Positions 33,160 to 33,222 of a stretch of DNA of 64,000 nucleotides are shown here, in pieces (the stretch's first letter is position 1; each line of letters begins with the position of its first letter). The DNA is from Negaprion brevirostris. Its lineage: Eukaryota. The notes under the pieces were generated by a model. It was not told the origin of the DNA. It did not search any database and saw only the letters and a list, made by a program, of their open reading frames with translations. The translations under genes and the position numbers were made by a program. Location: contig JARDVH010000163.1 in NCBI GenBank assembly GCA_030324005.1, positions 26,425,324 to 26,489,323 on the forward strand. Reading direction: 5' to 3'.

Positions 33160-33222
33160 CAAAGGAATTTTCAGAATTGCACAGCATGAGTGATGCATAT
33201 AGGGATTATTCACGCGGTGATG
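33160..33222. promoter_or_regulatory. SRR2 enhancer homologue
   Basis: aaaggaattttcagaattgcacagcatgagtgATGCATATagggattattcacgcggtgatg aligns to the recalled mouse SRR2 core (...GCAGCCATTGTGATGCATATAGGATTATTCACGTGGTAATG), at the expected ~3.5 kb downstream position. Confidence 0.8.

Follow-up and report, generated by a model that had tools for sequence, protein, structure and literature searches.

The SRR2 enhancer of Sox2 ranks with the founding examples of Sox2-Oct4 composite elements, and it has been cited as evolutionarily new; the canonical Sox-Oct composite enhancers are those of the Utf1, Fbxo15, Pou5f1 and Nanog type. Such composites have a Sox half-site whose TTGT core stands one base 5' of an octamer, and they bind Sox2 and a POU protein cooperatively as a ternary complex. 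Activity in ES cells and in telencephalic progenitors is a mark of SRR2. A second enhancer of the gene, N2/SRR1, was reportedly found by Iwafuchi-Doi in 2011 to depend on POU factors and to be independent of SoxB proteins. Conservation of N2/SRR1 is described in the literature as reaching the fishes. The general layout of Sox-Oct composite enhancers has been described (PMC3578749), and the core of the Sox2 motif is reported as TTGT/ACAA (PMC3203875).

The sequence of the mouse SRR2 core, 81 bases as published, is in print (PMC3413107 and PMC5438634), and the enhancer is placed 4 kb from the Sox2 start site (PMC13307697). According to these and related reports, SRR2 is among the enhancers bound by both BRN2 and SOX2 in neural progenitors and ATGCATAT is a motif of BRN2-bound sites in those cells (PMC3578749); furthermore, the 3' enhancer is activated by POU factors and mutation of its POU site lowers its activity (PMC3413107). 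SRR2 has been called conserved in chicken and not in frog or zebrafish (PMC5007870), and conserved to platypus (PMC3024949). No report of SRR2 in cartilaginous fishes was found in titles and abstracts, and the alignment figures of primary papers (e.g. Tomioka 2002, Kamachi 2009) or genome-browser tracks may show it. Here the Sox2 locus of a shark is compared with these systems.

Results

The Sox2 locus and an orthologue of SRR2

The window, by which is meant the whole 64,000-nucleotide stretch of Negaprion brevirostris DNA analysed, carries the Sox2 coding sequence on the plus strand at 29697..30629, as a single-exon, intronless open reading frame of 310 amino acids of the shark type. The 90% protein cluster of its product has 12 members, 9 of them named; seven are called Sox-2 (from sharks, rays or chimaera) and two are HMG proteins of sharks without a gene name. 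Identity of the protein is 99.3-99.7% with three shark proteins, 99.0-99.4% with two named batoid proteins and 94.8% with the chimaera protein P0010, and two residues common to the named batoid Sox2 proteins are not found in it. The proximal promoter of the gene has a perfect octamer, ATGCAAAT, at 29343-29350 without a Sox half-site, and an inverted CCAAT word at 29393-29397 adjoining GC-rich boxes.

An orthologue of the N2/SRR1 enhancer, with its POU/ATTA sites, was located at 26764..26867 (plus strand) by comparing the shark DNA by eye with the mouse oligonucleotides printed in PMC3413107. Positions 26764-26791 reproduce the opening 28 bases of the ATTA-1,2 oligo without a break, and 26853-26867 match the repeated oligo unit over 15 bases; the region 26640-27010, taken as the N2/SRR1 orthologue, holds both of these recurring POU/ATTA matches. 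Since the mouse N2 oligos are found 5' of the gene, the order N2 - Sox2 - SRR2 is the same as in mouse, and since these POU/ATTA sites are identical letter for letter in the shark, the locus has not generally decayed.

The counterpart of about bases 19-81 of the published 81-base mouse SRR2 core lies at 33160..33222 on the plus strand. In a comparison by eye, made between shark and mouse only and with the mouse core as printed, 30 of 32 aligned bases are identical over 33190-33222, with a 1-base gap that represents an extra G in the shark; a further 11 of 14 are identical over 33161-33174 and 4 of 4 over 33182-33185. The probability of meeting a match of 30/32 with one gap by chance anywhere in the 64-kb window is 2e-9 to 5e-8. 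A gapped pattern, partly circular in that it was made from the shark and mouse sequences themselves, matched once in the window and in 0 of 100 shuffles, and a 17-base stretch of the element occurs a single time in the 2.69-Gb genome. The octamer-like word within it is 3,496 bases from the Sox2 ATG and 2,564 from the stop codon, i.e. 2.56 kb past the stop; side, strand and distance all match those in mouse if the shark start site lies, as is probable, a few hundred bases 5' of the ATG. The sequence match, the position and the single copy therefore make the orthology secure on sequence grounds, and 33160..33222 can be taken as a real orthologue of the known Sox2 enhancer SRR2, in a lineage where it was unexpected. 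An earlier note, made from the letters of this DNA, had proposed an SRR2 homologue here; the identities (30/32 and 11/14), the position and the single copy uphold that proposal, and ATGAGT, the octamer-like word, GGATTA and TTCACGC are all present where the note had put them.

The genome also carries further intact SoxB1 genes, to which the names Sox3-like (G000:C193:111723473-111724384) and Sox1-like (G000:C97:535902-536897, with Ala/Gly/His runs) were given from their sequence. No SRR2-like stretch above shuffled controls was seen in the 30 kb around each of these (14% N), nor within 10 kb at another two Sox genes of the genome, and no N2-like stretch was found beside the Sox3-like and Sox1-like genes. 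Metagenome contigs, tried as an outgroup, gave three matches to the pattern, which were rejected as chance matches because none had flanking homology; in viral contigs there were 0 matches to the SRR2 pattern.

Words within the shark element

The element begins with the 5' block that it has in common with mouse (33161..33174, plus strand; 11/14 by eye), which carries one listed change, at 33171, in X14, the most distant of the sequencing runs from relatives that are described below. The place of the mouse Sox half-site (33186..33191, plus strand) reads ATGAGT, with variation between A, G and T at 33189. Separated from it by one G is the octamer-like POU word ATGCATAT (33193..33200, plus strand), which is identical to the mouse word as printed and, among the changes listed, is unaltered in all seven runs that cover it; the octamer had previously been claimed as kept, and so it is.

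The 3' conserved block (33201..33222, plus strand), with a GGATTA/ATTA word of homeodomain type and TTCACG, is one base longer than in mouse. Its GGATTA (33203-33208, plus strand) is also in the mouse core and has no listed change in the seven covering runs, and the spacing between octamer and GGATTA differs by one base from that of mouse. We take GGATTA/TAATCC to be a word of Otx (K50 homeodomain) proteins, and its designation as a putative Otx site is purely by resemblance of the word. The text of PMC3413107 on this point reports no repression of the 5' enhancer by Otx2 and gives no Otx2 result for the 3' enhancer. The TTCACGC that follows (33209-33215, plus strand) is a word of only 7 bases, altered in X14 by 33213 C>T and different in its last base in mouse. 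It resembles what is presumably a paired-domain (Pax) word and would be a putative paired-domain site by that resemblance only. On the minus strand, 33208-33214 resembles a second POU-type half-site, as we assume its consensus to be, which would be an alternative to the Otx/Pax reading; the resemblance is closer in X14 (33213 C>T). The mouse word CACGTG, presumably an E-box, reads CACGCG in the shark. A Myc pull-down on the mouse SRR2 core has been reported (PMC5438634), and the Myc site may well be this CACGTG in the 3' block. Upstream of the core, the place homologous to mouse ATTA-4 (33145-33154) is, by eye, a run of T in the shark, with two changes in X14.

The Sox half-site among relatives

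When aligned without a gap, 33186-33189 have 0 of 4 bases identical to the first four of the mouse CATTGT, and the TTGT core is absent at this place. Part of the interval 32950-33550 is contained in twenty public runs, of which eight were compared, one per organism, most of these organisms being 97-100% identical to the window here; seven of the eight cover the place of the half-site and one (X12) does not. CATTGT is found there in none of the seven. At 33189 the window has A, as does X15, a run possibly not independent of the assembly; X2, X7 and X11 have G (giving ATGGGT) and X14 has T (giving ATGTGT). X8 and X17 have either A or G, and for these two the listed change types, together with an empty indel table, exclude CATTGT. 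The depth is 2-2.8 in X2, X8 and X11, 14.5 in X7, which gives the same G at 33189, and 25.8 in X14. Over 33190-33212 there is no change in any covering run, among the changes listed, a list that is incomplete for X8 and X17 and lacks one change of X14.

The fact that 0 of 7 runs have CATTGT shows that the missing Sox site is not a base error, and the reading of 33189 as A, G or T among relatives shows that ATGAGT is not a conserved motif. It is clear that ATGAGT is lineage-specific and that the absence of CATTGT is common to all relatives that can be read. The earlier statement that CATTGT had been replaced by ATGAGT therefore stands for the absence of the former (0/7 runs) and falls for the latter, the relatives having ATGGGT or ATGTGT. 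Because 33189 varies, ATGAGT was also rejected as an AP-1-like or Pax-like word. Another CATTGT, at 33461, was rejected as it has no octamer beside it and is changed in five runs from other organisms by 33463 T>C. At five positions (33114, 33238, 33302, 33382 and 33463) the covering runs from other organisms agree on another base, which points to changes that probably arose in the window's lineage only; the one at 33463 creates the CATTGT at 33461.

X14 is the most distant run: of 561 letters, 44 differ and 9 are gaps. Conservation of its core does not exceed that of its flanks, with 3 listed changes in 63 positions versus 37 in 498 for the flanks (Fisher p = 0.61). The whole 560 bases of 32984-33544 are about 92% identical in X14, and constraint may therefore extend beyond the published 81-base core.

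Other Sox and Sox-Oct sites at the locus

The scans used a Sox-Oct composite consensus that we take to be the standard one. In 264 kb (the window and 200 kb downstream, with 20,506 N) the strict composite has 0 matches, the relaxed composite 1 (simulated mean 0.3, maximum 1 in 10) and the loose composite 4, versus a simulated mean of 2.0. One-mismatch matches to the consensus number 6 in the window, against 4.39 expected, with none at 33186-33200. The word ATGCATAT alone is unremarkable, with 17 occurrences in the 264 kb versus 14.7 simulated. The sole relaxed match, at L011:3440-3454, is 97.7 kb 3' of the Sox2 ATG and is at chance level; a similar distance, 105-112 kb, is reported for the distal control region of mouse. 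Isolated Sox-type words (ATTGT/ACAAT) without a listed change are present at 33105, 33311 and 33505, and Sox input from a distance is therefore possible.

Discussion

The reading that we favour, with confidence a little above even, is that the shark element at 33160-33222 is likely a POU-driven enhancer of Sox2, probably active in neural progenitors and working without cooperative Sox2 binding, and that the bony-vertebrate branch probably acquired the Sox half-site afterwards. The factor bound to ATGCATAT would be of POU class III (Brn1/Brn2/Oct6 type), perhaps joined by Pou5 in the early embryo, and a second factor of homeodomain type would bind the 3' block. Later, the deletion of one base, or changes to three flanking bases, would have placed CATTGT at the canonical spacing of one base from the octamer; an older neural element would thereby have acquired Sox2 feedback together with activity in ES-cell reporters.

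Deletion of SRR2 is reported to lower Sox2 in neural progenitors (10.1101/2023.11.09.566464) and to leave its level unreduced in mouse ES cells, which depend on the distal control region instead (PMC4265674); the link to pluripotency in the earlier note was thus overstated. The same holds for its suggestion that the Sox2-Oct4 loop arose through the half-site, given that Sox2 is not lowered by the deletion in ES cells and that Pou5-SoxB1 co-regulation exists in zebrafish, from which SRR2 is said to be absent. Shark and skate POU5 proteins are reported to rescue Oct4-null mouse ES cells in part (PMC9492771), so that partner proteins would have been ready at the gnathostome root. Furthermore, zebrafish Pou5f1 and SoxB1 are reported to have common targets that include sox2 (PMC2858445), and from these two reports it follows that the circuit does not hang on the half-site, which added at most one feedback input.

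In X14 the octamer flank reads CATGTGT before GATGCATAT, and with one G removed this becomes the mouse CATTGT, canonically spaced; when no gap is allowed, the mouse half-site is three substitutions from the X14 state and four from the window's allele. That few changes would be needed had been claimed before and is borne out by this single deletion or three substitutions, a step which fits equally well in reverse. For direction, the comparison covered shark sequences and, as the only bony vertebrate, mouse, and with only these two lineages the change cannot be rooted. We lean modestly towards gain of the half-site on the bony-vertebrate side rather than its loss in sharks, because, with the rest of the locus so exactly preserved, selective loss of a working half seems less likely. 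The existence of a shark copy makes it likely that SRR2 is as old as the jawed vertebrates, with the self-feedback part probably added later; shark homology and the kept POU word agree with the earlier view of SRR2 as an ancient element with a POU word. A more specific proposal, which is tentative and which we hold at rather less than even credence, is that SRR2 is a neural POU enhancer of roughly gnathostome age, not an amniote invention, and that a 1-base deletion by the octamer, in the bony-vertebrate stem or later, made the Sox2-Oct4 composite that was co-opted into stem-cell feedback. If this is true, the shark allele would be a living "before" state, switchable with one base.

Alternatively, the gnathostome ancestor may have had the full composite, and a one-base insertion or three substitutions in sharks or elasmobranchs may have destroyed the Sox half, the freed base then drifting from T to G to A. 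This is unlikely in our judgement, yet it is the most serious of the alternatives, being equally parsimonious with the two lineages compared. A single base separates X14 from the mouse site, and both have T at 33189; the partial support of ES cells by chondrichthyan POU5 (PMC9492771) and the reported age of Pou5-SoxB1 co-regulation (PMC2858445) would suit an old composite. However, the octamer, the 3' block and the N2 sites are all kept exactly, so that the loss would have had to be selective for one half, and none of the 7 relatives sampled has kept the half-site.

It is improbable that the shark element is still co-regulated by Sox and POU proteins, either by weak POU-helped Sox2 binding at a degenerate half-site or through Sox words 80-310 bases away, with the change only tuning cooperativity. 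The unchanged ATTGT/ACAAT words at 33105, 33311 and 33505 could serve in this way, and SOX2-BRN2 peaks are reported to be often further apart than SOX2-OCT4 peaks (PMC3578749), but 5-base words at such density are expected by chance, the three states of 33189 argue against a base-specific contact, and there is no composite with one mismatch or fewer at the place of the half-site. Less probable still is a homologous relic kept by slow change of shark DNA and having no present enhancer function. The X14 core is no more conserved than its flanks (p = 0.61, listed changes), SRR2 is reported lost in frog and zebrafish (PMC5007870), and mice lacking SRR2 are reported to have no obvious neurodevelopmental phenotype; against this, the flanks used in that comparison may themselves be constrained, and 30/32 identity between shark and mouse amid poorly alignable neighbours would need purifying selection on both sides. 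An assembly error or a variant private to this genome, which the earlier note had allowed as the source of the missing Sox site, can be set aside, for although ATGAGT is certain only in the window and in the possibly non-independent X15, six more runs from six other organisms, two of them at depths of 14.5 and 25.8, are also without CATTGT, which refutes such an error for its absence and leaves only the A at 33189 as specific to the lineage.

The shark copy would move the origin of SRR2 back to the jawed-vertebrate ancestor, and it splits the enhancer into an old core, of POU word and 3' block, and a lineage-restricted Sox half-site. Shark and mouse offer two naturally occurring alleles that differ by one to four bases, a case for the gain or loss of a cooperative site in an old enhancer. 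The reach of the finding is limited to one enhancer, and one that is reportedly dispensable in mouse ES cells; its significance would rise if the one-base gain were confirmed and found to switch on ES-cell activity.

Compared with mouse SRR2 as printed, the shark element has the same place 3' of Sox2, the same octamer-like ATGCATAT and the same 5' and 3' blocks, in the same order and at near-identical spacing. In contrast to mouse, it is without CATTGT and without the E-box CACGTG, it has one extra base between octamer and GGATTA, and by eye the upstream ATTA-4, which is bound by Emx2/Brn2 in mouse, is a T run. Set against the canonical Sox-Oct composites, it has the POU half at the expected place and lacks the Sox half, and is therefore not a member of that class. 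The closer functional likeness may be to N2/SRR1, which is a different element, 5' of Sox2, but has POU sites and ATTA words and needs no Sox half-site; by analogy, the shark SRR2 would work likewise.
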